Shown piece after piece: positions 330-64,000 of a DNA stretch of 64,000 nucleotides; positions within the stretch are counted from its first letter, which is position 1, and the number at the start of each line of letters is the position of its first letter. The notes beneath the pieces were generated by a model. It was not told where the DNA came from, made no database searches, and saw only the letters and a list, made by a program, of their open reading frames with translations. The position numbers and the translations under genes are program-made. The DNA comes from Lytechinus pictus (taxonomy: Eukaryota): contig NC_087251.1 of the NCBI RefSeq assembly GCF_037042905.1, positions 27,778,001 to 27,842,000 on the forward strand, read 5' to 3'.

Positions 330-704
330 AAATTTTGTCACTCCATGTAATATTTTCATTTAAATTTGTCCATACGATTTAAAGGAAATTTATTCTTCTT
401 GGTCGGAACATTAGCAAACTGACGTTGTTTGCTTTTTGAAGAAATTATCATATATTCACATTTGCTTGTATTCAATAATAATTCATTGCCACGGATGTCA
501 TTGGCAATATCATTCAAATCTTCATTGATTACGTTCAAGTTCAATTGGGTCATTGTAAGCAAAATTAGGGCATGAATTATCGGCATAAAGTGATAATGTA
601 CTTTGCCGAACAACTTTGGATATATCATTTGAATACATTATAACAAAATCATTGAGCCAATGATACTTCCTTAAGGACCTCCGCAAATAAATATCTCTCG
701 TCAT
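330..704 (-). pseudogene. Degenerate CR1/L2-type LINE reverse transcriptase fragment
   Basis: Frameshifted peptides NDISKVVRQSTLSLYADNS (YADD-like) and LLLNTSKCEYMII (LN.SK motif). Confidence 0.7.
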
Positions 705-9700: not shown

Positions 9701-12700
9701 CAACTCTGCCTTCGTCTCCTCTTCGGCATCCATCTCTTTATTTATCTGCCTCCGTATGTTTAGTCTTTCTCGGCATTGATCTCCTTCATCTCTGCCTCTG
9801 TCTCCTGCTCGGCATTCATCCACTTTGACGGTGCCTTTGTCTCCTCCTTGGGATTCACCTATTTTATATCTACTTCCGTCTTCTCCTTGGCATTCTCCTC
9901 CTTTTCTCTGCCTTCGTCATCACGTCTATTCTCGCCTCCCTTATCTCTGCCCAATTCACCTTCGGCATCCCCTCCTTTTTTCTGCCACATCTCCTTGGCC
10001 TTCACCTTCTTTATGTTTGTCTCCATCTCCTTCTCGGCATTCACCTCCTTTATCTCTGCCCCCATCTCCTCGGCCTTCATCTCCTATTTATCTGCCCTGA
10101 TTTGATTTTATCTATATCAACACGGTGAAAAGCGTTTGATCAGTGAATGGCTGATTTCCAGAGAGGCATGTAATATACAAACAATACACCTAATAATAAA
10201 TCATAACAAAATAAACTAATATAACAAAAAACTTAAATACATAACCAAAAGAATTTGGTGGTGAAAGAAAACAAACAAAACGACAACAATTAGGTTTAGA
10301 AAAGATGATAATCAAGATTTCAAGACTTTTCAATTCAATTCAAATTTATTTCCACATCTGATTAAAAAAACAAGTGCAAATTCATATGCAGATGTATTTA
10401 TACAATAATAAAACAATAAAATGAAACATACTGAGTTTGAAATAATTAATACGGTGTGAATTGAGAGACGCCGAAGGCCTTCTTTATCTCTGCTTTCGTC
10501 TCATCCTCGGCATTCGTTTCCGTTATCTATGCCTTCGTCTCCTTCTCGGCATTCGTCTTCTTTATCTATGCCTTCGTCTCATCCTCGGCATTCGATTTTG
10601 TTATCTCTGCCTTCGTCTCCATCTCGGCATTCGCCTTCTTCATCTTTGCCTTCGTCTCCTCCTTCAACTCTGCCTTCGTCTCCTCTTCGGCATCCATCTC
10701 TTTATTTATCTGCCTCCGTATGTTTAGTCTTTCTCGGCATTGATCTCCTTCATCTCTGCCTCTGTCTCCTGCTCGGCATTCATCCACTTTGACGGTGCCT
10801 TTGTCTCCTCCTTGGGATTCACCTATTTTATATCTACTTCCGTCTTCTCCTTGGCATTCTCCTCCTTTTCTCTGCCTTCGTCATCACGTCTATTCTCGCC
10901 TCCCTTATCTCTGCCCAATTCACCTTCGGCATCCCCTCCTTTTTTCTGCCACATCTCCTTGGCCTTCACCTTCTTTATGTTTGTCTCCGTCTCCTTCTCG
11001 GCATTCACCTCCTTTATCTCTGCCCCCATCTCCTCGGCCTTCATCTCCTATTTATCTGCCTTGATTTGATTTTATCTATATCAACACGGTGAAATAGCTT
11101 TTGATCAGTGAATGGCTGATTTCCAGAGAGGCATGTAATATATACAAACAATACACCGAATAATAAATCATAACGAAATTAACTAATATAACAAAAAACT
11201 TATGTACATAACCAAAATAATAGGGTGGTGAAAGAAAACAAACAAAACGACAACAATTAGATTTAGAAAAGATGATAATCAAGATTTCAAGACTTTTCAA
11301 TTCAATTCAAATTTATTTCCACATCTGATTAAAAAGACAAGTGCAAATTCATATGCAGATGTATCTATACAATAATAAAACAATAAAATGAAACATACTG
11401 AGTTTGAAATAATAATATGGTGTGAATTGAGAGACGCCGAAGGCCTTCTTTTATCTCTGCTTTCGTCTCATCCTCGACATTCGTTTTCGTTATCTATGCC
11501 TTCGTCTCCTTCTCGGCATTCGTTTTCTTTATCTATGCCTTCGTCTCATCCTCGGCATTCGTTTTCTTTATCTATGCATTCGTCTCCTTCTCGGCATTCG
11601 TTTTTTTTTATCCCTGCCTTCGTCTCCATCTCGGCATTCGCCTTCTTCATCTTTGCCTTCGTCTCCTCCTTCAACTCTGCCTTCGTCTCCTCTTCGGCAT
11701 CCATCTCTTTATATATCTGCCTCCGTATGTTTAGTCTTTCTCGGCATTGATCTCCTTCATCTCTGCCTCTGTCTCCTGCTCGGCATTCATCCACTTTGAC
11801 GGTGCCTTTGTCTCCTCCTTGGGATTCACCTATTTTATATCTACTTCCGTCTTCTCCTTGGCATTCTCCTCCTTTTCTCTGCCTTCGTCATCACGTCTAT
11901 TCTCGCCTCCCTTATCTCTGCCCAATTCACCTTCGGCATCCCCTCCTTTTTTCTGCCACATCTCCTTGGCCTTCACCTTCTTTATGTTTGTCTCCGTCTC
12001 CTTCTCGGCATTCACCTCCTTTATCTCTGCCCCCATCTCCTCGGCCTTCATCTCCTATTTATCTGCCTTGATTTGATTTTATCTATATCAACACGGTGAA
12101 ATAGCTTTTGATCAGTGAATGGCTGATTTCCAGAGAGGCATGTAATATACAAACAATACACCGAATAATAAATCATAACGAAATAAACTAATATAACAAA
12201 AAACTTATGTACATAACCAAAAGAATGGGGTGGTGAAAGAAAACAAACAAAACGACAACAATTAGGTTTAGAAAAGATGATAATCAAGATTTCAAGACTT
12301 TTCAATTCAATTCAAATTTATTTCCACATCTGATTAAAAAAACAAGTGCAAATTCATATGCAGATGTATTTATACAATAATAAAACAATAAAATGAAACA
12401 TACTGAGTTTGAAATAATAATATGGTGTGAATTGAGAGACGCCGAATGCCTTCTTTATCTCTGCTTTCGTCTCATCCTCGGCATTCGTTTTCTTTATCTA
12501 TGCCTTCGTCTCCTTCTCGGCATTCGTTTTCTTTATCTATGCCTTCGTCTCCCTCTCGGCATTCGTTTTCTTTATCTCTGTCTTCGCCTCCTCCTCGGCA
12601 TTCATTGTCTTTATCTCTGCCTTCGTCTCCTCCTCGGTATTCGCTTTCTTTATCTCTGCCATCGGCTCCTCGGCGTTCATTTTCTTTATCTCTGCCATTG

Positions 12701-12807
12701 TCTCCTCCTCGGCATTCGTCTTCTTTATCTCTGCCTTCGTCTCATTCTCGGCATGCACCTCCTTTGTATCTACCTTCATCTTTTTGTCGGCATTCACCTC
12801 CTTTTCC
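704..12807. repeat. Tandem array of ~1-kb units with internal 36-39-bp subrepeat
   Basis: Marker GAATTGAGAGACGCCGAA recurs 11 times (about 2447, 3432, 4398, 5219, 6476, 7482, 8487, 9453, 10458, 11424, 12429). Periods are mostly 966 or 1005 bp. The subrepeat reads as xNAEEETKAEIKK on the minus strand but with many stops and frameshifts. Confidence 0.95.
6137..6447. mobile_element. 311-bp MITE (PIF/Harbinger-like, 3-bp TSD)
   Basis: About 60-bp near-perfect TIRs starting GGCCCGTATTCTGAAGTCGGG; TSD ACT. Other array units show the empty site CATACTGAG. Superfamily inferred from TSD length only. Confidence 0.9.
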
Positions 12808-14225: not shown

Positions 14226-14268
14226 AAAAATATGGAACGCTTCACGATTTTGCGTGTCATCCTTGCGC
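14226..14268 (-). ncRNA. U6: U6 snRNA, 3' part with Pol III oligo-T terminator
   Basis: Reverse complement reads GCGCAAGGATGACACGCAAAATCGTGAAGCGTTCCATATTTTT, the U6 3' half. The first 6 nt are the duplicated target site. Confidence 0.97.
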
Positions 14269-14299
14269 CTGCTACATCTCAATCTTTTTCATTTTTATT

Positions 14300-14530
14300 G
14301 GAGCCTGCAGCCAATGACGTTGCCCCGTTTGCCAACAAAAGGAACAACATATGGGACAGCCGACCAATCAAAGGCGTCCATTCGGCATCTTTCCGTCCGA
14401 ATCGTCTGCCATAGATCACGTCATAGATCACGTGCCACCACTACTTCAAATTGCTTTCTGACGAAGATCTCTCGAACTTCGAACGAAAGTTTTTGCCGAC
14501 CTTCTTCTGCAATCAATTTGACAGGTAATT
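14300..14530 (+). promoter_or_regulatory. Putative Pol II promoter and non-coding first exon of the transposase gene
   Basis: Two CCAAT boxes (about 14311 and 14364), TGACGT, tandem ATAGATCACGT with an E-box (14411-14434), and donor CAG|GTAATT at 14525. Matching acceptor TTTTTCAG at 16384, 23 nt before the ATG. Confidence 0.5.
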
Positions 14531-16407
14531 TTCCCTTTTCTCATGCCAATATTAGTGTTGAATGCTGATATGATTGTTACTGCAGAAATTCTGATAACTC
14601 TTGTTATGTTTTGATGTGCCATTAAGTGAAAAATTGGATGAAAAATGTGACGAGTTTGTCGCGGTTTGTCAGTTGGAGTGCACTGAGTGATAGCTATTGT
14701 TTTTCACGTGTATTACAATGGTCGATTTTCACGCGTGTGTGGTGATGAATTGAACTGGTTTGAACTCTGATTGAATTATTGATTAGTTAATTACCTATAC
14801 TAGTAACGGTCTGTGGAGCCTAATCCAAATCCGGTGATTAAGTATTGAGTGTTGTGATGTATTAATATCTACCCGAGATCATTATTTGTGTCAAAGGCGT
14901 GTGTAGGGGATTGTCTTTATTTAGCTTGACTGTGTCTGTGAGAATTGACTTGAGTTTGATCTACTCTCAACTTCAAGTATCATACCTCTGGCTACCTCAA
15001 GGCCAAGTGATGTTCGTGCAGGCTCCACTCCACTTCTCTACCGCTACACTACGCTAGGTGGAGCGTAGACGTATGTAGCGGTAGTGAAGTGGAGTGGAGT
15101 GGAGCCTGCGCGAGCATCGCTTGAGCCCGAAGTTGAGGTAGCCTCTGGCTAACGTCAGTCTTGATGCCTGATGGTGGGGGAGGTGTTGACTTAACCACCG
15201 TGGAGCACTTAACATATATAGGTGGTACGGGGATGGGCCGCTTTGAATGACCCCCTCTTTTCAGTTCTCTAGACTAGATGCTTCATGACAGAATTTCTAT
15301 TTAGATGCCGCCCAGCCCCGGTCGCAAGACCCCCATTAGGCCTTACGAAACATGTCAATGCCCAGGCCTAGCCCTGCCAAAATTGTCCAGTGAGAGCTGC
15401 ATGCTCGCCTTCTCAACCCACTCCGCTTAGCACCGTAAGCGCCCATACATGCACAGCAAGTGTGCACCGTACCCCCTGTGCCGCGGTCCCGTTCCGTCAC
15501 GCTGCCTGGAATAGAGTAGATAGATCTATATTTAGTTCCCAAGACCGTGTATTTTACTCTTGTCAGTTCCTCAGGGTGTTGTGAGGCATCCACACCCCCA
15601 TCTAAACATAATTTTAGTGCCCACCCCCCCCCCCCTCCCCATTGGATTTAATTTACAAGATCAAAGTTTAAAAACTCATTCAATGAAGAAGGTTGTGATT
15701 TTCTGTTAACTAGGACTCCTTGTGTGGGAAATGAAGTGGGTAATGTTTGCTTGATTGTTTTTTGCATACTGCAGTTTGCAGTACAACTAGATATATCATC
15801 ATTTAACTTTGCTCTGAAATAAATTGAATTATTTCTAAAGAAATTTGTAATGAATTAAAAATTGTAATTGTTGACTAATACCAGTTATGAAAGTGTTACA
15901 TCACACTTATTGATATATTGTATGTCCATGTGCAATTAATTCCTTTAAAGAAGTGGAAATTTCATAAAAATTAGATGTAAATAAAGTTATGACATTTAAT
16001 ATTTTTGCTTAGTATCACAAAACAGTAAATATGCACAGCCTGATCGGTATGGAAATGAGGGGGAGTGATGACTTCATGAATTTACTTTTTATTTTGCTTG
16101 TAAATACATGAAATATGAAATTTATCCATTTTAATTTTGAAATGAAGTTTTCTTCCTCCTGAGCATGTGAAATTAACATTGTTTTAATATTTGTTGGTTC
16201 AGCAAAGTTAGATGTGGCCTGTGATTCCTGCTAATAATTGTTTTTGTATGTTTTTCTCTTTCTTTACCTCTGCAGCAATCTCCATAGACATTTGGCGGCC
16301 ATCTATTTGTTATCTGTTTCGTAGTCAGTCTTTGTTTTGTCTTTCTTGTGTCTCTGTGTGTGTTAGTACTTTTGTTCTTTTCAGGTCTTTGAAGGAGGGA
16401 GGAAGAC

Positions 16408-19400
16408 ATGTTCGAGCCAGCGTTCTTCTACAAAGGCAACATCCTGAGGTTGGGGGATTCAGATAGAGCCAGAGCCTTCACCAGACCAGAGGGATTCAAG
16501 GTACGCCCAGCTGTAGAAGTTGAGAAGGAGGCCAAGAGGGAGGTCCAACGCCTTGGTGGAGACCCAAGTCATCGTGTGTCTGTGCTGGCCTTCTCCAGAG
16601 TGCAGTTTGGCAAGTACCCAGGACAGACCTTCAAGTGGCTGGTGGAGAATGCCCTGGGATGGTGTGCCGAGTTGATGTGGAACATGGAGCGGACTGGGGA
16701 GAAGTTGGACCCAAAGAGAGACCAGTCCGTCAACAAGTTTGCCCTTAAGGAGTACATCACAGCATTTCCTGAAGGGTGTGCCGCTGTTGAGATGAAGAGG
16801 AAGAAGGGGAAGCGTCAGACAGCAGGATGCAGCCAGAGTGAGAGTGGACGACCTCCAAAGACTGGATCCATGAAAGATCAAGGTAAGTCATTTTTTAATT
16901 AAATTTAATTAAATTTATATTAGAATTTTGACTAAACGGAAATGGGGTGCAAAGAATTTGTATGTTCGTTAGAGATGTGTAGGAATCCTTTTTATTGAAG
17001 TTTATTTTAAAGGTAAAATTATAGTAGATGCTGCAAACAGTTATTTCATGAGAGAGTCTTTGAAATTAACCTGTATATACTGGTCGGTCTGAAATAGCCC
17101 AGTTAAGATAGGGTTAATGTTAATTGCCACAATATTATCATAGATCTACATCTAATAAATTTAAAGTAACTTTGTGAAATCATGAAATCTTATCTCAAAA
17201 CCAATAATTCTAACGATCAGTAGTGAGAAGAATGTATATGCGGCACAGTGTATTGATAATGTTTTTAAAATGCATATTTTATTTAACTCTGCTTATTTTG
17301 CTAATTTATCACCAATGACACATTTTTTTCCATTAGCTATTAAATGTCATTTTAAGATTGCAACCACAAGTGGTGTTTATAGCGTTAATAAATAGAATGA
17401 TTTTTCATGAATAGAAATTGTTAATAAATATAATTTAATTGTTAATTGCAGTGATGCCACCTATTATAGCAAGCTCTCTGACAATTAAGTCATTGGTGAT
17501 AACTTTCATAAAACATTCCTTGGGATATTTATGACCAAATAGCATTAATATTGACAGTGAATGAATATTAAAATATTAGGTTGATATCAATATGAACTTT
17601 ATACTTCCCCCAAAAGGTGAGGGACAAGTTTTCGATGATGACCTCACTGATGCTCAGTTGATTGAAGCATTTCTACAACGTTCCTCCTTAGATTCTGCAG
17701 GTGCGTATTGTATTATAAGTTAACACATAATGTAAATTTTGTATTGGTCTTTCTTGAAATGGCTTTGCTAAAAAAAACCTACTTGTAATTGAAAAGAGGA
17801 GAGGAATGCGAGAGAGCAATAGAGGAGGTGTATAAAATGGAAGAAAGAGAGGAATTTGAGTAATGTAAAAAACAAAAACAAAAGTAAATATATTAAAGCA
17901 TAAAAAGAAGGAATTCATTAAAAATTCCATCAAAGCTAAAATGTAGAACATACTCTTCATTCAGTGTTTTTATATTGTAATGTGTTAACAGGAAATGTGA
18001 ATGCTCATATTATTTCACTGATCACTTTTTTGTATTTTTATGAATTTGAATTTGAATATCCCTCTCCTCTAATAATCAATGTTTTGTTTTGTTTTTTCCT
18101 TTTAGAAGCCACTACATCAAGAAAAGTGACTTCAACATGCAAGAGAGCAGTAGCAGATGACGGAGATAAGACAGGTAAATGTGGTTCATTTTTTCTTTTC
18201 TGGACATTTAACTTATGGGACAAGAAATATGTACTGCAACCAATCTAATAAAGTCCAACACTAGATATAATTTTTTGTTAGTGTGCACTACACGTGTGGT
18301 TATTGAGAATACCTTGAAAGCATTGAAATAAATACATATGTTTCTTTATAGTAGAGACTGTCTTCCCTTGCACCTGCCATTTAAGATTGAACTTTTTTGC
18401 ACGATTAGTGTGAACAATGATTGGATGACACCTACATAGAGAAGAAGTAGCTTGATAATGTAATAACTGTAACATTACTTGTACATTATTAGAAAACAAA
18501 TATTGTTTTCCTTATTTTATTTGCCTTTATTCTCCTGATTTCATTTTTCAATGTACCAGCATGTTACATTATTATGATGTGACTTGAATCTCTTTCAAAG
18601 ATTAATATATCTGTATATTCGTCTGAATTATCTTTGCACTTTTTTTTCCAGAGTACCTCCTGACCGAAGGGTGGAAGCAGACACTACCACGTCAGGATCA
18701 TCAGTGGGTTTCACGTGCTTTGTTCAAGGTTTCAGCCCGTGGGAAGCCTGAGTTTGACATGCAGAAGATCAACACACTTTGGTTCTTCCCACCTTTACCA
18801 CAGTTCGCTCAAGGCCAAGCTCCAAAGCCAGCACGTTACTTTGCGACCAAACTGCTGATGTGGATGCCTCGCAAGCTTTGGGGATTTAAGATTCTTTGTC
18901 CCAACAAAGAATGCAACGGTCAGGAGCTGTTATCAGCCGGTGTCTACTCCCATGTGCGACAGGTCATGGACATTGATGGATTCTACAACATGGGTGCTGA
19001 GTACCTGGAATGCAGAAAGTGTCACAAGAAGTTCATCAGTTGGAGCAAGCCCATCTTAGACCAACTGGACACCAGTCACCGGCTGTCATTCCCGGTCTTG
19101 CTCACATACAGGTTAGTGAATATCTTGTCAATATCCAAAGAATATTCCTTTATTTCTTGTTTATGTATAGCTTTTGCATTGCTTTATTATTATAACACAA
19201 TTCATATGTCATTGTATTTCTGATAATTTATTTCTTTAACTTATTGTTTTCAAACTATTTAATTAATTAACGTCATTGACTTATTATTATCATTATCTTG
19301 TATTTCCCAACTTGAGTAGGCCCTTTGCTTACCTAATTTGTAATATGAAAATACTTTACACTTTACATTTCCTTTCTTGTTTGTTAAACGTTCAATTATA

Positions 19401-22400
19401 TTAATGTATGCTATTTGTCAAGCGCTTAGATACATCATGTTAAGCGCAATATAAATACAATTTTAATTATTAATACTTTACTTCATTGCACCCTATACTG
19501 CTGTAATGCGATATTTCAAAACCATATGACAGATGGAACTTCGCAGTGATATACTGATTCCTAAATTTCTTCTTTTTGCTACAGAGGTGCTTGTGACAGG
19601 AAAATCATCGGGATGATGCGGGACAGGACACTTGGCAACGGACCATTCCAGATGATCCGCAAGCTCAAAGAGGTCCACACCGATGCTTGGCTTGCAAAGA
19701 CTGCCCAGTATTGTTCTGTGGTTGAGGAGTTCGTCAATGCCAGTGAAAGGGGCCTCATCAATCGACCAAACTGCCCACCACCGCCCGCAATGTCTTTTCT
19801 TCCCACGTATCGTTGGCTCCTGACGGTGTACTGCAACGACGTGCTGGAGCGCATCGATGAAGTGAAGGCTAGCATCACATCTACATTCGGCCGTATCCTC
19901 AAGATGGACTCGACCAAGAAGGTGAACATGAATGTGCTATTCATTTGATGTAATATCATCTTGTGTAACAAAATGGTTAACTTAAAAAATTCAAGAAAAT
20001 TGATTACAATCAACCACTTTTAAGCATCTAATTATTTTATTGTTGCTTGTGTGGTTTAAGTGGTGACTGACAGCAAAAACATTACACTTTAAGGACTTTC
20101 AATTAAGACTTTGATTAATAATTGTAATCTCATTCCTGTTTGTTTATCAATGTTTCTTTACTTCCTTCATTTCTCTGTATAATATAAGTGTGTATGATTG
20201 TATAAGATACTTGAAATTCATTCCATTTCTGAAATTTATCTTTTCATCACAGATCACAAGGAAACTGAGAGGCGAGTCAGCAGGGACTGCTGCTTGGGCA
20301 ACCAACGTCGGCAACGAGTACGGACAAGTACTGATGTCCGTGATGACTGTTGGCGAGGGAGCCGGTCTCTACGAGATGATCAAGGGCATCCAGAGACGGT
20401 ATGCAGCAGCCGGCCAACCTAGACCAGAGCTTCTGTACGTGGACAGAGGCTGCTGTGGTGCGGAATCCAGGATCTTCAGGGGGTGGCCAGACATGCCTGT
20501 CCGACTTGACGTCTGGCACTTCATGAGGAGGCTTGCTAGAGGATGCACCAGCACTGAGCACCAACTCTACCCGTTCTTTCTGAGACGGTTGTCAGCCTGC
20601 ATCTTTGCATGGAGCGCAGACGACCTGAATCAACTCATCGCCGCAAAGAGAGGGGAACTCAGGGACCAATGCATCGCTGAAACTTCTGATGAGGTCATCC
20701 TGAAGCACCTTGGAAAGAGCTCGATCGCACGACACTGCAGACGAGTGACCAGAGGAACGGAGGAGACTACCCAACTCATCGGAGATCTCTTGGCTTCCTT
20801 GGATGGCGAGGGAGGACATGACACACTCGGTGTTCCCCTCTTTGACTCCGACAGAGTGTGGGAGATTTGGGACTCACAGCAGAAACACATCGCATGCCTA
20901 CAAGATCCACCAGATGTCCAGCTCTACACCAAGATAGGAGAGTCAGTGAAAGGTGGCATCACATTGCCTGTGTTCAGATGTGCTAGAGGGTCAACATCGC
21001 TGGAGTCCTTCCATCTTCACATGAACCGGTTCATCCCTGGTAAGTTCATGTCTTATATCACTTAAAGTGTTGTAAAACAAGTGTTATAAAATCTGTCAAT
21101 GTAAGATCATGCTGATTCTTCACCATCATGTCACTATTTGGAGCATCTTTATTTCTACAGGTTTCTGTCTACATTCCTTTTTTGTATTGCAATGGATACA
21201 TTTCATAATACATTCGAAATACTTTGTTCATTTCATTTTTCAGGGACATCAGCCAACAATGTCCACTTCCAGGCCTACCTTCTTGAGGGGGTACATCGAT
21301 GGAACTGCGATCGTGCAAGGGATGCTGAAGCTGCCACTGCGCCTTCTCACGCATCATATGGCACCTACAATGAGTACGATGTCAACCGGTTGACCGAGAA
21401 GCTGTTCGGACTTAAGATCAACCCTACTCTGACTGCACCCCAGAAACACACAGGTATGCCAATGCCTTTTCTATTGTAGTCCATTCATATATGACTCCTA
21501 ATGGTCTATGAGTTATGTCAATATAAAATGCATTGAACTGATGAAATGAATTATTTTGTTATCTCAATTTTAATTCCATTTATTCAAAATTTATCTAGAT
21601 CTGTATTCCTTTCTTTCTGTCAATTTATTCCTTACAGGGGAGCTTATCGGCCTGGAATATCTCTTCAACCAGACCAACGAGGAGCTACTTCCCATGCATC
21701 CTGATGAAGGGGAGGTAGAAGATGATGATGGCGAGGACGTAGGACGTCGGGAAGAAGAGGACGTAAAGGACCCGACTGAGCCACCCCCGGAGTTTGGAGT
21801 AAGCCCTGCTTCATCCCGACGTGCCTCGAGAGTGTCAAGCCAGCAATCAGTACCACAGCACGTTAGCAGTGAGTATTTCCTATATTTTCAACGACTTTTC
21901 TTTGATTGTATTTTCAGGGAGTCATTACTACGAGCTTTACTTCAACAATTTATTCCATGACAATTGGGAACTTACACTGCTGCTCAGATGTTGTTGCAGT
22001 CCAAACACATGCTGTATCTTTTACTTTTTTATTTCTTTGTACGACATTGTACCATTTTTGGATCAATGTATTCTTCATTGCTAAATTAAATAACAATTCG
22101 ATATACCTGCAAAAACCCAATAATAAATCTTCTGAGTGACTTCCCAACATTATAAAATATTATTTCTATTTCTTCTATCTCATTTTACCTACAGCAACAC
22201 CACAGAAACACAGATCACAGAGATCATCACTGCCGGTTCCATCCACCAGATGCAGACCCCACACATCCAAGGCACCGGCAACAGTATCACGTGCTCCAGA
22301 TTCACCACCACCAACTTCAATTCACAGAACATCCACAGCACCAGCAACTGTCTCCCGGGCACCCGATTCTCCAAGGGATGACACACCGGATGGTGGAACA

Positions 22401-24631
22401 CTTGCTGGAGATGAAGAAGTGAAGGATGTTGAAGATGTGGATCTTAGAGAAGAGTCCGACGTAAGAGAAATAACCTTTATTTTTATAATGCTTATTTCAT
22501 TCATTTATCTATTATAATTAATGAATAAAATGAAATAAGCATGAATGATTCATTTCAAGTGTCCATGGGAAAGAAATAATACATGTTATTGTTGGCTTCA
22601 TTCAGAACAAGTTGGCCTGAATAATTAATTTATTTTAAGATGTTATCATGTTTCTGGTCTTACATACAAAGCTTGCATTTAAAAATATTATTTATTTCAC
22701 TTTTTTGATTTGATGTTCCTGTTATAATCACTAGACATTTTATAAATGGATGGCTATAGAAAATGACATATAGATTGGAGTCACACTGTTTATCAATGTG
22801 CAATTCTCTTTTGTTAATCCCATCATATGCATTGTCCTCTTTATTGTAATTTTACTTTTACAGGAGGAGCACACAGGTCGCAGACCAGGTTACGACCGTG
22901 TGCAAGCACTGGGGAACTACCTCCTCAAACTCAGAGGTGACGAACATCTGATGAGCTCCAGGGACTCCAAACAGATCGTGAAACTTTGGAGCGAATTGGA
23001 TCCATACGACCAACAAGTGAGACGCCCGGCCCGTCACCAAGAGAAGCTCACCAAAGGACGCTTCAAAGCCAGAGGAACATCTCCAGTTGTCCCAGGCATA
23101 GAGAGTACTCAAAGGTATGTACATTCAACTCTATTAATTTTTCTGGGTGATTTATCATGATGCAATCATGAGCAGCCTTCTTGTCTACTTTGCAAAGATA
23201 TAGAATAACAAAGAAGTATCTCAACTCGCCGATATGGATTTCATCAATCACATTCCAGTTCTTCGTTTATATCAATCACCTTATTACTTTCACTTACAGC
23301 AATACAACCAGCAGTTGAAGTGTGCTGTACACGATTTCTTGATGTATTTTTCTATCTTTGTATATTTTTTCCTCCCCTCGTACAGATGCTTTCTTGGAAG
23401 TAACTCGGGACCCGCCTCCGTACCCAACGCCAACAGGGTTATGGAGTATGTCATTGGTCAGCTCTGCAGCTACTACCCAGAGCACCAGAGGCACAAAGGG
23501 AGAGTCATTCCCAGGTGGACCACTATCATCCATGACTACAAGAACATTCGAAGCAGGGTCCTGGCCTCCACCCACATAACATCCAACACCCGCCTACAAT
23601 TGTTAGATATCAATCGATATGTCCTCATTCAATGGTAAGAATATTGAAAAATGAGTTAAATTTCGAGCACTTAGAAATGTCTTTTATTGAATTGAATTGA
23701 TTTCTTTTACATACTTTGGAACATACAGATAATTAATATGGTATATCAATCATACCTGAATTAAATAATACAGCAATTTGAAATCAAAGACAATTTAAAA
23801 TATAATGAATTAGATGGAATCATTGAAAGCAATTCAATGGCATCACAATTTTATTTGTAACAAAATTTATCTGTGTTATTACAAAGTATTTCAAATAGAT
23901 CGTATCTTTAGCAATATTTATCTCCCTATGAAATACAGCCTGTCTAATGGCATTTTTCTTTCTCTTCCTTTTCTTATTTCATGTACAGGCATAACCGAAG
24001 ATCTAAAGAAGAGGAGAGGAGTGCATTGGAGATGGGAGCTTCGGCACCTAGACCTAGCATGACTGCCCACCAATCTGTCCCACCACCAAAGGAGAAACCA
24101 CATGCCTTGCCACCACCTCCCATCCAAAGGCCCTACCAGTTCCCGATGGTTTCCAACACAGTTGGTCAGGCAAAGATGAGGGCACCAATTGCACAACCAA
24201 CATTTGTTCTGGTTCCTGTTCCTGTAATGGCCGTACCATCAACCCCTGTGTCCACCCCTGCCCCAACTACAGTCTCTGTCCCTGGATTCCGGTCCATCCA
24301 GCCTACACCTCCTACCTGGCGGCCCAGTGTACCACAGCCGAGTCAACCACCACCTTCATCACTCCCGAAGTCCACCCATTACAACAGGAAGCGCAGAGCA
24401 CAGCAACGACTCGAAGGACAGGTTTCTACCAAGGTTTACAAGGCCCGGAAAGGTCCGATTGTATGCAGCCAATGTCATCAACCAAGGGATCGAGAGACTC
24501 ACACTCAATATTATGGCAGCTGGTATTGCGAGACATCCCAGAACCAACCCTTGGCTGAATGGAAGGCGATGATGTCAGAACGGCGACTAGCAAAGCTGAA
24601 AGCTGACAAGGAGGAAGCCAAGAAGGACTAG
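16408..24631 (+). CDS. Dada-type DDE transposase, 12 coding exons, ~1353 aa, apparently intact
   Basis: Manual GT-AG model: 16408-16882, 17617-17700, 18106-18174, 18652-19111, 19585-19921, 20253-21039, 21244-21453, 21638-21868, 22195-22460, 22864-23114, 23386-23634, 23989-24631. Total 4062 nt, phases compatible, no internal stop seen. Motifs: CPNKEC...CRKC (C4 finger), candidate catalytic D in LKMDSTKK, D in YVDRGCC, DxxH in RLDVWH, E in GSTSLESFH, C-terminal CSQC..H..C. The small low-complexity exons are less certain than the core. Confidence 0.88.
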
Positions 24632-25744
24632 TGCAGTGAATAATATGTTTATCAAGACGGCATAAGTCGGGTCGCCGGCGACTAAACTGGCGCCACCTAC
24701 TGGAAGCTATGCCAGTAGGAAGGGGGATTAAGACCTCCTGCAGGATGAAAAACAAGACCTGTTAAAGTGGATCATTGCACCAGTCAGGCACAAGCAACAT
24801 CGAATCTATGGATTTAGGACACACTAATGAGAAACCAGAGGAATGAGAAAAATGGAATGAAGATTACCTTCAAGGAGAGAGGAAACAGTCTAGGTAGAAA
24901 GAGGAGATTGTGGGCAGCTTCATATATACGTCAAATCAGATGAAAAAGGGCCAAACATTCATTGAGAAATAAGGACAGGTTTTAAAACAACAGTGAAAGA
25001 CCATCTGGAAGATATAGAACATATTACAAAAATTGTTAGATGACAACAGCGGCAGCAGAATAGTGAGGAATCATTGACCAGCAATTTTCAAATTCAATAC
25101 AACTACGAAAGCAGATGGGATATTTCAGCAGTTTTCGAGAAAAGCTACAATCTGATAGAAACTCATTTTCACCGCCACAAAGTACCCCGAGGAGCTCTGG
25201 TTCTTGTAATCATTGAGCATCTCGAGTGGTGACTCAAGTTATATCGGCATTCACGACGTCTCAGTGCTATAGTACGATATCCATGATGGATAAGCATTGA
25301 GGACTTAGTGGAATGTATGTGCAACAGAATTTAGTAACAATGAAACATGTAAAGAAAAATAAATGTTGGATGTTATACAACAAAGTACTGTACCTTAGAC
25401 AAGCAACTCCTAAGGTGACTATTTTTTCCGATCGTTCACGGGTATCCTTGTGGAGCTCCATATTTAATATGTTGAGCATCATTTGCGATGACTTTGTGGA
25501 GCGGTCTCTTAAAACTAGTGTGATAATGTCAACTAGTTTGGTTTTTAATGCTGCCAAGACATTAACCAACTTTCTTCAAACTGCCATTCAAATTTGTTGA
25601 AAATTGGTTGATGTTTTGAAGGTCCCAAGCCCTTGTCAAAAGCAGAGGGAAAACCAAGTAATGCTTCATGAAAAATCCCAGGAGAGGAAAAGACGTAGAA
25701 AAAGAGAGAGATTAAAAATGATGGGGGAGGGATTTACAACCTTT

Positions 25745-26060
25745 CGGCACTCGCATCCTTCTTGTATAAATGTGACTTAATACCTTTTTCCACACTCATA
25801 AATGGGATTTACTACCTTTTAGCACTCACACTCAAAAATCTTAATGACTTCTTGAAAATAATTATTTCTTAAATTGTGACTTGCTTCCTTTTGGTATAAA
25901 TGTGACTTAATACCTTTTTCCACACTCGTAAATGGGATTTACTACCTTTTAGCACTCACACTCAAAAATCTTAATGACTTCTTGAAAATAATTATTTTTT
26001 AAAATGTGACTTGCATCCTTCTTGTATAAATGTGACTTAATACCTTTTTCCACACTTACA
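25745..26060. repeat. ~126-bp tandem repeat in the Dada 3' region
   Basis: GTATAAATGTGACTTAATACCTTTTTCCACACT occurs three times; the counterpart array is at about 58970-59340 in copy 2. Confidence 0.9.
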
Positions 26061-26068
26061 ACTACATA

Positions 26069-26100
<32 letters not shown>

Positions 26101-26449
26101 ATTCATGACTAAACTACAACAAATCTTTTGAAAGGTTTATTATTTATTCCCTGGGGAAGGAGAAATAGGAAAGAAACGTTTGCTTCAATTATAAATGAAT
26201 AAAGAAGGCATGAATGAATAAAAAAAAGAATGAATAAATGAATGAGTAAATGAATTAATGAATGAGTCAAGGAATGAATGAAAGAAATAATAAATGAATG
26301 AGTCAAGGAATGAATAAATGAATGAATAAGTCCAGGAATGAATGAATAAATGAATGAATGAAAGAAAGAATGAATGAATGAGTCATGGAATGAATAAATG
26401 AAGGATCTTTCTCTCATTCTATTTCTTTTTCATTACTTTATCCCCCCCT

Positions 26450-26488
<39 letters not shown>

Positions 26489-27014
26489 AATCAATAAATT
26501 TGAAAGGACAAGATATATCTTTCCTTCCATTCTTTCATTTTCTATTTATTTATTTATTTATCTATCTAATATTCTTCTTATTTATCTATTTATTCATCTA
26601 ATATCTATCTATATATACATATACATACATATCTTTGTTTATCTATCAATTATTCTGTCTATCTACCCCCCCACCCTCTCTCTCTTTCAGAAGTGAAAAA
26701 TACAATGAACACGAAACATAAATGCAAAATACATTCATTTCATTTCAAACATAATGCATTTATTACAAAATCAACCGTCATTACATTACAATAAAAATCG
26801 TGCCTAAAATTTCATTATTTACTTTCTTTTTCCCCCTCTCCGGCGTTCCATACGCCCGAACCCGACCGATTTGTTTTCAAACAAGGCTCCATTTCCCACG
26901 CCAGCGATAGCTCCGCCCCCCTTCTATGGCAGACGATCTGCCCAAAAATCATCAAAACAGCGCCGGCGTGGGGGCCTATGGGACGCGGGGACAGAGAAGA
27001 TTAGTCGGTAGCTT

Positions 27015-27027
27015 TTGCGCAGGGGCC

Positions 27028-27059
<32 letters not shown>

Positions 27060-27084
27060 ATAGATGTGTTGCCGAAGCGAACAC
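27015..27084 (-). ncRNA. U6: U6 snRNA, 5' part (nt 1-70), interrupted by Dada
   Basis: Reverse complement reads GTGTTCGCTTCGGCAACACATCTATTAAAATTGGAACGATACAGAGAAGATTAGCATGGCCCCTGCGCAA: U6 5' stem-loop, ACAGAGA box and AGC triad. Confidence 0.97.
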
Positions 27085-56649: not shown

Positions 56650-59418
56650 ATATAGGAATAATCAAGTATCACTGGCAAGTCTTATGTCGCATGATCAAGG
56701 TCAACTTTCATTTATTGTCATTGAACATCTAGTATTGTATCATTATATGAATTGTGTTTTTGTGAATAATTATATTATAGTAGTTTTCAAAGTCAGCACT
56801 GCTGCTATATTGAATCGCGTGATGCAGGTGAGACTGCCAGAGGCGCTCCACTTGTTTTAGTTCTGCAACACAGATGGAAATCTCCCACAGAACTCGTAGT
56901 GCCGGTGTTTCGCACGACACTTAACTACAGCCTTCGATTACTCCGTAATTTTTCCTTTTGACGGAGAAGATAAAGCGTTTGAATGAAAATTATTAATATT
57001 ATTTTAACTTAACAATCCAATCAGCTTACCAGTTTCTTGAAATATGTGATTTTCATCCAGGAATAAAATTACAAAGAGCCTGTGCACAGTACTAGCGATG
57101 TATCGTCGTCATGTTTCTTTTGCAGCTTGAGCATACGAATGCACCAGCTAATCATTTTCGTGTTACCAGTCTCAGCAGAGCATATTCCTGACAGAAATAG
57201 ACTTATTTATCAGTCTACAAAATAGCCTAATTTTCAAAAGCAAAACTGTAATAAAATTGCAATTACTGTAACGAATAGTGAAATACAAATCAAAATAATC
57301 ACAGACGCAAAGAATGCATCATGCTTAATACTTGAACCATGAAGATGAGAGCATGTCATTGCTTCAAAAATTACATGGCCAATTTATTTCATGACTCATA
57401 AATCAGCTGCGGACGTTGACGTACAGGGTACCCCCAGGATATTAAATTTTCTTTTACGGAAAGCATGGAAGTATTTGTTAAATAATGATAAGCTTTAAAT
57501 GATTCTAAATGTCATGAAATATTGCAGCAAAAATATTTGAATCTGTAGATAATGGAACATGATTTAAAGAACTCTGTAAAAAGAATAATAGCAAAATGTT
57601 GGTGAGGGTGTGAAAATGTATAATTTTATTTTGGTCATGGGAAAATATTTAACTGAAAGTGTTTTTTTTTTCACCATTTAATCATGAGGAAGGAGCAAGG
57701 TAAACATTAGAAGTGAACAATGTTATTAAACAAACGTTTGTGACATTTTTGGCTTCCCATAATTTTAGCCCAGAGTTAGACCACATTCTAAGATTTTTAT
57801 CCGACAGTAACCAGAGTAACTGTGCTTCTCAGAAAATTGAAAACAAGGGAAGAACAAATTTGACAACTTTTGGGACAATAATTTTGATGAAATACTCCAC
57901 AGACTTCAGAATTTGAGCCATAGAGTTCATCAGCTTGTTTTACTTCTGTTCAGGCCTGATGTTTTTCATGCACCATACAGTACCAGTCACCATTCTTTGA
58001 ATCACTATTACATGTACCTGTTTCAACCAGAGAACAATAGATTTGGTCCACTGATCTACCGACTAATCTTCTCTGTCCCCGCGTCCCGTAGGCCCCCACG
58101 CCAGTGCTCTCCGGTAGATTTTTGGCCAGATCGTCTGCCATACAAGGGGGCGGAGCTAGCGCTGAGCGTGGGAAATGGAGCCTTGTTTGAAATTAAATCG
58201 GTTGGGTTCGGGCTTATGGAATACCGGAGAGGGGGAAAAAGAAAGAAAAAAAAAAATTCTGGCACGATTTTTATTGTAATGTAATGACAGTTTGAAACAA
58301 AATCTTTGTGTGTTTATTTTTTAATAAATGCAGTTTGTTTGAAATTAAATGAATGTATTTTGCATTTAGGTTTCCTGTTCATTGTATTTTTCACTTCTGA
58401 GAGGGATTTTTTACTTCTGAGAGAGAGAGAGAGATGGGGGGGGGGGGTAGATAGACAGAATAATTAATAGATAAACAAAGAGAGAGAGAGAGATATATAT
58501 ATATATATATATATAGATATTAGATGAATAAATAGATAAATAAATAAGAAGAAAAATAGATAGATAAATAAAAAGAAAATGAATATTGAAAGAATGGAAG
58601 GAAAGATATATCTTGTCCTTTCTAATTTATTGATTAGAGAGAGGGGGGGGGGGTAAAGGAATGAAAAAGAAATAGAATGAGAGAAAGATCCTTCATTTAT
58701 TGATTCCTTGACTCATTCATTTATTCTATCTTTCATTCATTCCTGGACTCATTCATTTATTCATTCCTTGACTCATTCATTCATTTATTCATTCATTTTT
58801 TCATTCATTCATGCCTTCTTTATTAATTTATAATTGAAGCGAAAGTTTCTTTCCTATTTCCTTCCCTGTAAATGTTTCTAGGAAATAAATAATAAACCTT
58901 TCAAAATATTTGTTGTAGTTTAGTCATGAATTGAATAAAAAAAATATATATATATCATGTGTAGTTATAAGTGTGGAAAAAGGTATTAAGTCACATTTAT
59001 ACAAGAAGATGTAAGTCACATTTTTGAAAATAATTATTTTCAAGAAGTCATTAAGATTTTTGAGTGTGAGTGCTAATAGGTATTAAAACCCATTTATGAG
59101 TGTGGAAAAAGGTATCAAGTCACATTTATACAAAAAGGATGCAAGTCACATTTTTAAAATTAATTATTTTGAATAAGTCATTAAGATTTTTGAGTGCAAG
59201 TGCTAAAAGGTAGTAAATCCCATTTATGAGTGTGGAAAAAGGTGTTAAGTCACATTTATACAAAAAGGACGCAAGTCCCATTTGTGGAAGTAATTAGTTC
59301 CAAGAAAGTCATTTAGATTTGTGAGTGCGAGTGCCGAAAGGTTGTAAATCCCTCCCCCATCATTTTCAATCTCTTTTTCTCTGTCTTTTCCTCTCCTGGG
59401 ATTTTTCATGAAGCATTA

Positions 59419-60437
59419 TCGTAAGTAACGGTCTATTAACCGCACCTTTTTCTCCGCAGGATAGAAGCAAAAGTCGGGGGTGCGGTTTATCCACGGTGAC
59501 GGGTCTGAGCCAGCCCGCCGTAACCCCTCCCGAACATGTAAGACGTCTGCCAGTTCACAACACATCGAGTGGCCGGGCGTAGCCGCCCAGGGCAATGTCG
59601 TATAGAGGGGTATGAGCCGCGGGTAATGAGAAGCGATTATTACGATTTTATTAAATATTGTCCATAACAAACGCACCCACCTTCATGACACTAATTTCGA
59701 CGTTTATTCTCGGTTCAAAGCAGCGAAGTTCCCTGGCTTAGTTCAAAGAGAAGCCAAGCATACTCTGTAATATTTTGTCACAGCTGAGCGAGCGCGAGAG
59801 TTGAGTTAGCTGAGCTAGCTTGCGTTGTATTGTGGTTATAGTGCGACTTAAGCTGGCGCTATTCATTTTAATCCTCGATCCCCTCCAAAGTCCTGTTTCG
59901 CGCCAGCTTATTTTTTCTTTCCCGTTTGCTTTTCATAAGATACCATGTAGTGGTACACCACGCACGCACGAGAGAGACGGCACGAAGCCGTCAAAACAAA
60001 TTTTAAAAATGCCAATTTCTTTGTTTCTTGAACCTTCCTGTAATCCCGTATCCAAAATTCATGCTAAGACATCGAATGCTAGACAAATTCTGAAAGTGAT
60101 TGTGAGTTTGTGATGCAAGAAATGTGAATGTTTCTTCCTCCTACGCCGGGAAAGACACAGATCATTATTTGATAAGATGTACTGGTAGTGGTACCGTATC
60201 GTAGTTTGCAATGTACATGAACGGCAGTGCTGTGTGTGTGTGTGTACACTGTGACTGTGAGGTGAGTGAGTGTGTAAGTGGCCAATATTGTCGGGACCTT
60301 TCTTTTTTGCAAACATTTGTAGATGAATTGATCAAGAACAGCAGATTTCCGCATACCGGTAATCTCTTTGGATACTTTGAAATCTTTAACTTAGTTTTTG
60401 TTTCTTCGTACCTCAAATATAATGTGAGAAGGATTTT

Positions 60438-60470
<33 letters not shown>

Positions 60471-60519
60471 TGGGGGTGCGGTTAATCCACGGGTGCGGTT
60501 TATAGTCCGTTACTTACGG
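59419..60519. mobile_element. Tc1/mariner(pogo)-like MITE inside Dada copy 2
   Basis: TA TSD; TIR (T/C)CGTAAGTAACGG.CTAT.AACCGCACC at both ends; empty site GCATTACTTGG present in copy 1. Confidence 0.88.
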
Positions 60520-60633
60520 TACTTGGTTTTCCCTCTGCTTTTGACAAGGGCTTGGGACCTTCAAAACATCACCCAATTTTCAACAAATTTGAAAATAAAT
60601 TTCAAGAATGGTAGTTTGAAGAAAGTTGGTTAA

Positions 60634-61217
60634 AGGAGAATGAAACCCTTGAAACCAGCTGAATCCATATCAAAGAGAAAAATCAAAGAAACATATTGTT
60701 GAAAGTTTGAGGAAGATTGAATGAATAATAAGAAAGTTATGAGCATTTGAATATTGAGATCACTAATGCCATGTAGATCCTCCCATTGGCAATGCAACCA
60801 AGATCTGTGATGTCACACACGTACAACTCCCTCATTACTTTAGTACTTATTTCACTTATATTCTCACTTTTATAGAGTCTATCACAAGGTGAGGTGTTCT
60901 CTTTACGAGAGGACAAGTACAGAGGTTTCACAACATTATATCAATGATGAATCGTTTGTCATATGATTAGAATGAGCAAAAAGAGATGTTTTGGGATATA
61001 TTTTCAGTGTCCAAAAGGGGAGAGTTGTTCATCTGTGACATCATAGATCTTGGTCGCATTGCCAATGGGAGGATCTCCATAGCATTAGTGATCTCGACAT
61101 TCAAATGCTCATAACTCTTCTATTGCTAGTCCTATTTTACTCAAACTTTTGTTGATCTTACTCTTTTATTTTTCTGCTTTCACAAAAGCTAACTTGCTCC
61201 AAGAGTTTCATTCTCCT
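60634..61217. mobile_element. Kolobok-like MITE inside Dada copy 2
   Basis: TTAA TSD; AGGAGAATGAAAC / GTTTCATTCTCCT termini; long internal inverted similarity; absent from copy 1. Confidence 0.85.
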
Positions 61218-61929
61218 TTAAAATGTCTTGGCAGCATTAAAAACCAAACTAGTTGACATTATCACACTAGTTTCAAGAGACCGCTCCACAAAGTCATCGC
61301 AAGTGATGCTCAATATATTAAATATGGAACTTCACAAGGATACCCGTGAAGGAACGGAAAAAATAGTCATCTTACGAGTTGCTTGTCTAAGGTACAGTAC
61401 TTTGTTGTATAACATCCATCATTTATTGACTTTACATGTTTCATTTTTACTAAATCCTGTTGCACATTCCACTAAGTCCTCAATGCTTATCCATCATGGA
61501 TATCGTACTATAGCACTGAGACGTCGTGAATGTCGATATAACTTGAGTCACCACTCGAGATGCTCAATGATTGCAAGTACCAGAGCTCCTCGGGGTACTT
61601 TGTGGCGGTGAAAATGAGTTTCTGTCAGATTTTAGCTTATCATCAATCTGTCTGTATCTTGAAAACTGCTGAAATATCCCATCTGCTTGCGTAGTTGTAT
61701 TGAATGCATTGTTGGAAAATTGCTGCAATGATTCCTCACTATTCTGCTGCCGCTGTTTGTCATTGTCCCCAACAAGTTTTGTAATATGTTCTGTATCTTC
61801 CACATGGTCTTTCACTGTCGTTTTATAACCTGTCCTTATTTCTCAATGAAAGTTTGACCTTTTCTCATCTGATTTGACGTATGTATACAGTATATGAAGC
61901 TGCCCACAATCTCCCCTTTTTACCTATAC

Positions 61930-63741
61930 CAGGGCTGGAAATTGGTGGTGGTCCGGGGGCAATTAACCGCCTAAAGCTCCGTTGGGCACCCTAAAAGTCG
62001 GATAATAGTGCCCGGGCTGACCACCAGAAAAAATAAATGTAGAAAACCGAAAATGAGTAGGTCTAAAACGAATCGTAGGGCAGCACACGACACTGGCACT
62101 GGTCCGACGGTCCCAGACCAGTAAAAATAGCTGTCGGGCCAGTAACTTTTCAGAAATAGCCAGATTTACTGGTCCAACATGACCAGTAAAAAATATATAT
62201 TTTCTCCTCTTTAGTATCTTAAAAAATGTCTTTCCAAAATTGAGAAATGGTTCGCATTAATTGTGTTGTGTGTGTATGTGTGTATTGTTTGTTAGTACGT
62301 TTTTTTTTTGGGGGGGGGCAATAAAAACAATAAAAGACAGCAAAATAAACAAGTCTTTTTCATGTTTTTCTTTATTTTTCGGGACCAGTAAATTTTAGAT
62401 TCGGACCAGTAAAATATTGAAAAACTGGGTATCTACTGGTCCAACTTGAACAGATTGGACCAGTAGAAAAAAGAGTTAGTGTGGAGCCCTGCGTAGGGAC
62501 AGTGATTTTCCGTTTCAGAAAATCGTAAATTCCGTCTTAGCATGTCAGAAAACGGAAATTCCGTTTCCCCATAGACTTTGTGTACACGGAAAATTGGCAA
62601 TTCCGTTTACCATTCAGTAGCAATATATCACTCGCGTTGGTCAAAATTTGTATCTGCCACCGTACCCACAACGCAGTAGAATCCGCTCTAATCGGATCTA
62701 TGCGGGTACACAAAATATTTAGAAAAACACATTTGACACAAATACACCCTTACCTTTCACATTATTAGCATTATTTTTTTGTTAAATTAATTTTTATCGA
62801 TAATTTTGGGGGTTTTTGGACATCGTTTCGACCAGTCAACGACTTTAGCCTATCCGCCATTTTGAATTTCAAGACCGGAATATCGTGCTGTTACATCTTG
62901 AAAAGTAGAGGGCAGCAACACACAACTGTGTTGTTTGCATGTGAATGTTTTCGACACGGCCGACTCGGCCCATTGAACTTGAATAAAGTTAAGTCCTTTC
63001 ATTATAGTATCAAATTCAACGTGTGGTGAGCTTGTTGTGTGTAATTTGGTGATTGAGGACACATTTTGTGATGTTGAGGAATGGACAACTACATGATCAC
63101 TTGTTTATGTTTTGCCTCATCCAAGCCACTTGTGGTTTTGTTCCCACTATTTCTGTAATGTATACTTCTGGGGCCCATTTCATAAAAAGTTGCTATAAAT
63201 TCTTTCGCAGCCAGAGGCTGAACTGTGGAATCTTTTACAAATAAAAAGTATAAACATTACGTAAACATCATAAATAATTACATAATTACACAATGCAAAA
63301 TGAAAATACTAATATGATATCCAAAAACTAACTATGAGTACAGGATATCATGCATTAAAAGAAAACAAATTAAGCACAGAGACTCAGAGTTTACCTTAGA
63401 GTGACATAGAGAAAGGGACAGGGACAGAGAGAGACAGTTACACAGAGGGAGAGAGAGAAACATGGACAGAGAGAAAGAGAAAAGGATCATGAGTAATTTT
63501 TTTAAATCTCCTTTGAAACAAAGGCTTGATTTTGTCCTTTTTAATCTACAGAAAGGTTCCACCAGTAATGTAGTGTTTCACAGCAAACTTACACATACAG
63601 AGTTGATACACTTTACAATTTGTCATGATACAATTTTTTCAATATGCATGTGATGACCACCTAAACTGCCATTTGACTACCTAAAGTTCAGTCCAGGGTG
63701 CCCAGCTGACTTCCAAAAATTCAAGTTAATCGAGAGGCCTG
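61930..63741. mobile_element. hAT-like non-autonomous element, 5-bp TSD, inside Dada copy 2
   Basis: Absent from copy 1; CAGG...CCTG ends; TATAC duplicated on both sides; TIRs are degenerate. Confidence 0.7.
62081..62491. mobile_element. Short copy of the same MITE family, 7-bp TSD
   Basis: Ends similar to 54359-56649 (GGTCCGACGGTCCCAGACC ... TAGTGTGGAGCCCTG); TSD CGTAGGG (62074-62080 and 62492-62498). Confidence 0.85.
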
Positions 63742-64000
63742 TATACTGTTTTCTCTCTCCTTGAAGGTTAGCAATCTTCATTCCATTTTTCTCATTCCTC
63801 TGGTTTCTCATTAGTGTGTCCTAAATCCATAGATTCGATGTTGCTTGTGCCTGACTGGTGCAATGATCCACTTTAACAGGTTTTGTTTTTCATCCTGCAG
63901 GAGGTCTTAATCCCCCTTCCCACTGGCATAGATGCTTCCAGTAGGTGGCGCCAGTTTAGTCGCCGGCGACCCGACTTCTGCCGTCTTGATAAACATATTA

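Follow-up and report, generated by a model that had tools for sequence, protein, structure and literature searches.

How does a DNA transposon that inserts at one exact site find that site? Dada elements are among the very few DDE transposons (named for an Asp-Asp-Glu catalytic triad) that insert in this way, and their site finding has been a question since 2013. It is raised here by a 64,000-nucleotide stretch of the Lytechinus pictus genome (assembly GCF_037042905.1, contig NC_087251.1, positions 27,778,001 to 27,842,000 of the forward strand; hereafter the window), in which a U6 small nuclear RNA (snRNA) gene is split by an element of the Dada-U6 type. A block of sequence is shared, in register, by both ends of this element and the 5′ side of the interrupted U6 gene, and a second Dada family of the same genome has the same design with a different block. 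It is probable, judging from these sequences and from a structural model, that one arm of the target docks with the transposase as a pseudo-end. The element and its target are as follows.

14269..27014, + strand: Dada-U6 DNA transposon of 12,746 bp, with its transposase gene antisense to U6; bounds set by the split U6 gene and the duplication
14263..14268, + strand: left target-site duplication, TTGCGC (GCGCAA read in the U6 sense), equal to the published Dada-U6 duplication
27015..27020, + strand: right target-site duplication, TTGCGC
27021..27084, − strand: 5′ part of the U6 snRNA gene (Rfam RF00026, 70.6 bits, model positions 1-68 including the duplication)
14226..14262, − strand: 3′ part of the U6 snRNA gene, identified by sequence and in agreement with an intact U6 gene of the same genome (L010)

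The published Dada-U6 elements (PMC3706591 and PMC8869645) share with this element the U6 site, the 6-bp duplication, an antisense transposase with a DDE triad, a DxxH motif and CCCC and CCHC zinc fingers; they likewise lack terminal repeats and have in common with U6 a sub-terminal inverted repeat set at one distance. The window element is a new member of Dada-U6 and forms a family with end sequences of its own, among them a 14-bp match to U6 at the right end; as a sea urchin, L. pictus would add a phylum to the four from which Dada-U6 is listed. Three near-identical copies were found in the genome (the window copy and two more), all at the same U6 site and all three with the expected duplication (GCGCAA or GCGAAA); copy numbers given here are lower bounds. 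At 12.7 kb, the element exceeds the 4.7-11.0 kb of published Dada-U6 elements, and high-copy repeats nested within it at 14990-15143 and approximately 17086-17211 (a palindromic piece; very high read depth) may account for the extra length.

The sub-terminal block of Dada-U6 and its counterparts in related families

Positions in the ends and in the flanking arms of U6 are counted away from the duplication. In this register, three segments of the window correspond to one another.

14281..14286, + strand: left-end block AATCTT, positions 13-18; at 15-23 this end retains only 5/9 letters of the published 9-bp word
26991..27004, − strand: right-end block, positions 11-24, which includes the published 9-bp word and agrees with the U6 5′ arm in all 14 bp
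27031..27044, + strand: end-like block of the U6 5′ arm, positions 11-24 from the duplication

An earlier note on this DNA had drawn attention to AATCTT at positions 13-18 of both ends and of one U6 arm. The four end and arm sequences that it quoted all read as given, and the motif is confirmed in the left end, the right end and the U6 5′ arm. The ends form no terminal inverted repeats and are alike at 13 of 30 positions. The published word is complete in the right end (9/9), and its partial match in the left end includes a 6-bp run in register. Measured against 20,000 random 30-mers from the window, the right end resembles the U6 5′ arm at P 0.00015, the left end resembles the right end at P 0.007, and the left end resembles the U6 5′ arm at P 0.008-0.02. 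Because an in-register run of six letters through both ends and the U6 5′ arm was reached by none of 200,000 random pairs, this three-way block is real and far above chance.

The core of this idea is already published. Kojima and Jurka (2013; PMC3706591) reported sub-terminal inverted repeats that stand equally far from the duplication at both Dada-U6 ends and in U6, said the same for Dada-U1, and guessed target recognition as the role of the shared repeat; AATCTT adds two bases to their word and can be seen in their Fig. S2 at either end. The left-end symmetry, which the earlier note had taken as possibly undescribed, has thus been described, and its proposal that one binding module could read ends and target alike is supported here but had been made in print. 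The word "inverted" is absent from the text of Kojima (2022; PMC8869645) that was accessible, and no account of an end/target block across Dada lineages was found in literature searches to which only these two papers were relevant, although their figures or Repbase entries may show one.

Conservation was followed among published ends taken by eye from Dataset S1 of PMC8869645 and Fig. S2 of PMC3706591, in which single-base slips are possible. Among the 23 fish Dada-U6 records, four 3′ ends were excluded (two end in U6 flank and two are without a terminus), and the TrTi record, which would add 0/5 at positions 3-7 and 5/5 at 15-19, was also left out. In the 17 families compared, the two ends of an element agree at 67/85 letters over positions 15-19 and at 19/85 over positions 3-7, the latter being the chance level (P 0.75). 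Exact AATCTT at 13-18 occurs in 5 of 26 published left-end records, approximately eight of which seem not to start at the true end, and the core TCTT at 15-18 occurs in 11; the refuting condition set by the earlier note, left ends without AATCTT at 13-18, thus has a mixed outcome.

A metagenome scan for junctions with the U6 5′ arm yielded 28 loci, seven of them with a transposase match on the same contig, and 15 distinct ends; the search pattern fixed end positions 1 and 3, and these two columns are consequently biased. The 15 ends match the U6 5′ arm at 83% over positions 13-24 (0/5,000 in both nulls) and at only 29% over positions 4-12. AATCTT at 13-18 is exact in 5/15 and present with one mismatch allowed in 11/15; for TCTTC at 15-19, the corresponding counts are 9/15 and 13/15. 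Nearly the same end is found beside the U6 5′ arm with opposite orientations of the transposase (L051, L053 and L071 versus L059 and L068). Fish left ends contain GTTCCA repeats, a candidate echo of a word on both U6 arms that is not obvious in the window element.

A protein search of the genome located a Dada-5S element at C17:20584980-20593556 (L045/L046), which splits a 5S rRNA gene and is bordered by a GGGAAT duplication. C45 carries two further copies (L076, L078, L080, L081), for a total of three in this non-fish genome; in PMC8869645, Dada-5S is reported from fish only. The protein search also gave matches on C2 and at a second place on C17, which are not among the elements described here. 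A pattern search for further 5S junctions gave two matches, the known copy and a 5S gene with a 1-base deletion. The word AGTACTA stands at positions 18-24 of both Dada-5S ends and of the 5S 5′ arm in exact register (0/200,000 random pairs), and it is not in the 5S 3′ arm. Of the 12 letters at positions 13-24, the two Dada-5S ends share 8 and 9 with the 5S 5′ arm but 1 and 2 with the U6 5′ arm. Conversely, the two Dada-U6 ends share 12 and 8 letters with the U6 5′ arm and 3 and 4 with its 5S counterpart; neither family matches its own second arm (2-3/12). A second family in the same genome with the same design and a different signal suggests that each finds its target through the likeness of that target to its own end. 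The two sides of the C45 copies differ, with GGGAAC next to one end and GGGAAT next to the opposite end, a difference also reported for Dada-U1.

The same junction design is found in Dada-5S and in tRNA-targeting members of the superfamily; the end/target block of these lineages is our own reading, drawn from the sequence files of PMC8869645 and from the present genome. By eye, and again with single-base slips possible, GGACT at positions 16-20 of the tRNA-Ser arm recurs in 9/12 3′ ends and 5/12 5′ ends of fish Dada-tS, and both ends of Dada-tY carry GTCTGTA at 17-23, as against GACTGTA in tRNA-Tyr. The 3′ ends of Dada-tA have GC at 22-23, as does tRNA-Ala, in all 14 complete ends (three of 17 records are without one), compared with 0/18 Dada-U6 3′ ends, and the ends of Dada-tD/tV have AGCCG at 5-9, as against AGGCG in tRNA-Val and tRNA-Gly.

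Besides the three young copies, the genome contains one older Dada-U6 copy with non-U6 flanks and one lone right end. The older copy lies partly in the window.

58056..64000, − strand: older, interrupted second copy of the Dada-U6 element, with its right end clipped by approximately 3 bp and non-U6 flanking DNA

TTGCGC still adjoins the left end of this copy (window 58056-64000 and L004), and the DNA beyond is not U6. Next to one young insertion (L003:1142-1385, C21) lie two further decayed copies of the U6 3′ end and its downstream DNA in tandem. A second Dada-U6-like family occupies C18:14794500-14842760 (L032-L037) and is 89% identical over the catalytic exon. At its boundaries stands a look-alike of the U6 5′ arm, 21/25 in register and head to head at the right boundary, which is tandemly amplified with the left-end interior in units of approximately 1.1 kb; an intact U6 gene lies approximately 6.5 kb further on. 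This look-alike may be either a captured end or a decayed U6 fragment. Elsewhere in the window are a long array of diverged short repeats with strongly strand-skewed base composition (693-12806) and a 560-bp direct repeat of 100% identity (45723-46282 and 53234-53793), the two copies being 7.5 kb apart.

The transposase and the probable docking of one target arm

The protein encoded by the element bears the published marks of a Dada transposase.

16393..24631, + strand: intron-containing Dada transposase gene, with DUF6729 and a CCCC finger, D at 19907, D at 20442, DxxH at 20508, E at 21003 and a C-terminal CCHC finger

The identification as Dada follows from these marks: the N-terminal CCCC and C-terminal CCHC zinc-finger motifs are both present, as is a DDE triad with DxxH after the second D, an assignment that rests on the motif and the RNase H-type fold. 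The DUF6729 match has an E-value of 9.6e-56, the second D and DxxH are nearly invariant across 83 relatives, and contigs that carry related elements have four GT..AG joints at the introns. Two more Dada-like transposase genes lie at C18:14100227-14105298 (62% identical) and C12:13744326-13750466 (54% identical); no split RNA gene was seen in the 30 kb inspected around each, and their ends are therefore undefined.

Sequence searches of the Protein Data Bank gave no match for the catalytic exon and one irrelevant match (E 0.88) for the profile. A fold model represents P0001, a close relative with 89% identity in the catalytic exon (mean pLDDT 77.7). Among solved structures, the IS256-family ISCth4 transposase comes nearest to it (Z 12.6, rmsd 3.7, 269 residues, 12% identity), the next-best structure scoring 8.9; Foldseek also ranked ISCth4 first, at E 1.2e-3, and returned no match at E 0.001 or better. 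The RNase H-type catalytic domain with a helical insertion domain, a trait of IS256, is seen in the model. ISCth4 (PMC7780238) further resembles Dada in that it binds sub-terminally, at bp 14-25, attacks beside the recipient end, and has a best junction spacer of 6 bp, which is the length of the Dada duplication. It differs in its long terminal inverted repeats (24/31 bp alike), an IS256 trait that the window element lacks, in its 8-bp duplications, and in its A/T-rich non-specific targets; moreover, Dada is not known to form a circle.

A feasible model, which we consider probable, may be that a single DNA-binding module of the transposase reads the block on each end and on one target arm, that the fixed distance between block and active site sets the point of insertion, and that the other target arm is not read by this module. 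The letters between block and cut drift freely, and the block changes when a lineage switches its target. The Dada junction, composed of target arm, 6 bp and end, has the geometry of an IS256-type end-to-end junction. For the U6 5′ arm, the earlier suggestion that the target looks like a transposon end is upheld; for the other arm it is not, as discussed below.

Several observations weigh against this model. The left end of the window copy retains just 5/9 letters of the published word, the word sits 3 bp further in for one metagenome end type (5/28 loci), and the block is missing from the Capitella end beside the U6 3′ arm and from both metagenome ends in that position (L052, L062). Because the families are related, the counts are not independent. 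Dada-tA 3′ ends keep AATCTT at 13-18 in 11/14 cases, though the tRNA-Ala arm reads ACCATT there, and in Dada-tN and Dada-tL the target word stands one base out of register. Kojima (2022; PMC8869645) stresses likeness among targets close to the duplication, which a sub-terminal block does not explain. Finally, the fold alignment spans ISCth4 residues 111-397, outside the domain (56-108) that binds bp 14-25.

Alternatively, the likeness would be historical only, the ends having once been captured or converted from target DNA, with the block kept for end recognition while another protein surface picks the target by the bases beside the duplication. Likeness extends far beyond the block in some ends, namely 17/24 between the C45 Dada-5S copies and the 5S arm and 21/25 at one boundary of the second Dada-U6 family; targets of related lineages are alike beside the duplication; and Dada-tA 3′ ends retain the U6-type word. 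We nevertheless regard such a history as an unlikely substitute for recognition, since every lineage has the match afresh in letters of its own, kept in inverted form at both ends while positions 4-12 diverge, and since a module able to bind the block of the ends would bind the same block of the target as well.

The outer motif and the second target arm

A still less probable reading, and the one closest to the earlier note, is that a cryptic bipartite repeat (GCTAC plus AATCTT) defines the ends of Dada-U6 and that a two-armed, pseudo-palindromic target is read on both sides by the same module. It depends on three further segments.

14271..14275, + strand: GCTAC at positions 3-7 of the left end, family-specific and not conserved
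27008..27012, − strand: GCTAC at positions 3-7 of the right end, family-specific and not conserved
14244..14249, − strand: AATCGT at positions 14-19 of the U6 3′ arm, the AAUC of which is predicted to pair, in the folded U6 RNA, with GAUU of the 5′ arm

GCTAC was said to be specific to the ends, and it is indeed found in both ends and not in the U6 arms. It occupies positions 3-7 of both ends in all three young copies, and it is also present in one end of the C17 Dada-5S copy and in 1/15 distinct metagenome ends; ends with two shared blocks occur elsewhere in the superfamily, most clearly in Dada-tL (AGCTG and ATAGTCC). The match in the window copy is marginal: a run of five anywhere in positions 1-12 has a P of approximately 0.01 for one family and approximately 0.16 over 18 families. 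The corresponding letters are ACTAC in the older copy and GGTAC in the two Dada-5S copies on C45, and GCTAC is at 3-7 in none of the published Dada-U6 ends that were taken by eye. With the chance-level identity of the two ends at these positions, GCTAC was rejected as a conserved outer box, and the outer half of the proposed bipartite repeat fails.

The letters AATCGT in the second arm are correctly given, but they lie off register with the ends, and in this copy the U6 3′ arm resembles either end or the 5′ arm no better than chance (best of five offsets, P 0.26-0.60). The 15 metagenome ends match this arm at 68% over 13-18 at the best offset (P 0.05 and 0.009) and at 35% over 13-24. The word varies by host, being at 14-19 here and in Daphnia, AATC at 13-16 in zebrafish, which is the exact register, and AATTCG in Capitella. 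As a recognition site, the second arm was rejected both for the window copy and for 5S, in which it has no match, and a pseudo-palindromic target read by the transposase on two arms is not supported, the 3′-arm match being displaced in some hosts and lost in others.

When the intact U6 gene of this genome is folded at minimum energy, the site of the duplication becomes a hairpin loop and AAUC pairs with GAUU, so the 3′-arm word belongs to the stem, and complementarity to the 5′ arm suffices to explain its likeness to the ends. The predicted fold is weak, the centroid being without those four pairs and the z-scores being 0.07 and −0.81. The internal stem-loop is an established element of U6, and, according to the same source, the structure of metazoan U6 inside the particle has not been experimentally determined (PMC5855946). 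It is likely that the second-arm likeness follows from insertion in the loop of an RNA hairpin. By these comparisons, the bipartite and two-armed reading appears already largely refuted. The earlier finding as first written adds little, because its central idea had been published and neither GCTAC nor the second arm, the details that it contributed, holds up.

Selection at the RNA level, in which the transcript of the broken U6 gene would run into the adjacent end, fold back on the 14-bp complement and mask the ACAGAGA region of the truncated RNA, is the least probable explanation, for although the adjacent end is the better match in the window copy (14 bp versus 6) and ends beside the U6 5′ arm (L048-L075) resemble the U6 3′ arm at 4-12 with an offset of one base (49%, P 0.016 and 0.028; a post hoc comparison of related sequences), the block is also at the far end, beyond the reach of such a transcript, the better match in Dada-5S is the end not adjacent to the arm, and the design recurs in tRNA and 5S targets. 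No RNA dataset containing the element was listed, and no read-through RNA was seen.

Site finding in the Dada superfamily

It is tempting to speculate further that end mimicry extends across the whole superfamily, with an RNA gene arm replacing the recipient end of an IS256-type copy-out/paste-in reaction, the ends, target and N-terminal binding region co-evolving as a code, and an end-6 bp-end junction arising whose spacer can be carried. A carried spacer would explain the replaced duplications of Dada-tA and Dada-tY, for which there has been no explanation so far. We judge this extension doubtful as a whole, because a shared fold does not fix the pathway and the domain that binds bp 14-25 lies outside the alignment. 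The cut-and-paste mode of eukaryotic Mutator-like elements also counts against it. In four sequencing runs, no right-to-left joint indicative of an end-to-end circle was present among the 15 joints listed of 47; the reads derive from diverged relatives, and the end bins have little or no cover.

Insertion into end-like sequences has precedents. IS911 (IS3 family) and IS30 insert into their own terminal repeats (as cited in PMC7986276), although in those cases a genuine element end is the target and the event a side pathway, whereas the target of Dada is a conserved host RNA gene and its normal one. A route similar to copy-out with a carried spacer has been raised for KolobokP (PMC9587614).

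The co-variation of end and target turns the guess of 2013 into a controlled experiment: two families in one genome with different blocks in the same geometry give block-swap experiments a built-in control, and ISCth4, the transposase of known structure that comes closest, yields predictions about the base pairs that are read and about the effect of moving the block. Gene delivery is named as a use in both PMC3706591 and PMC8869645. If superfamily-wide mimicry with a copy-out route were true, Dada would be a eukaryotic DDE transposon that is retargetable by design.

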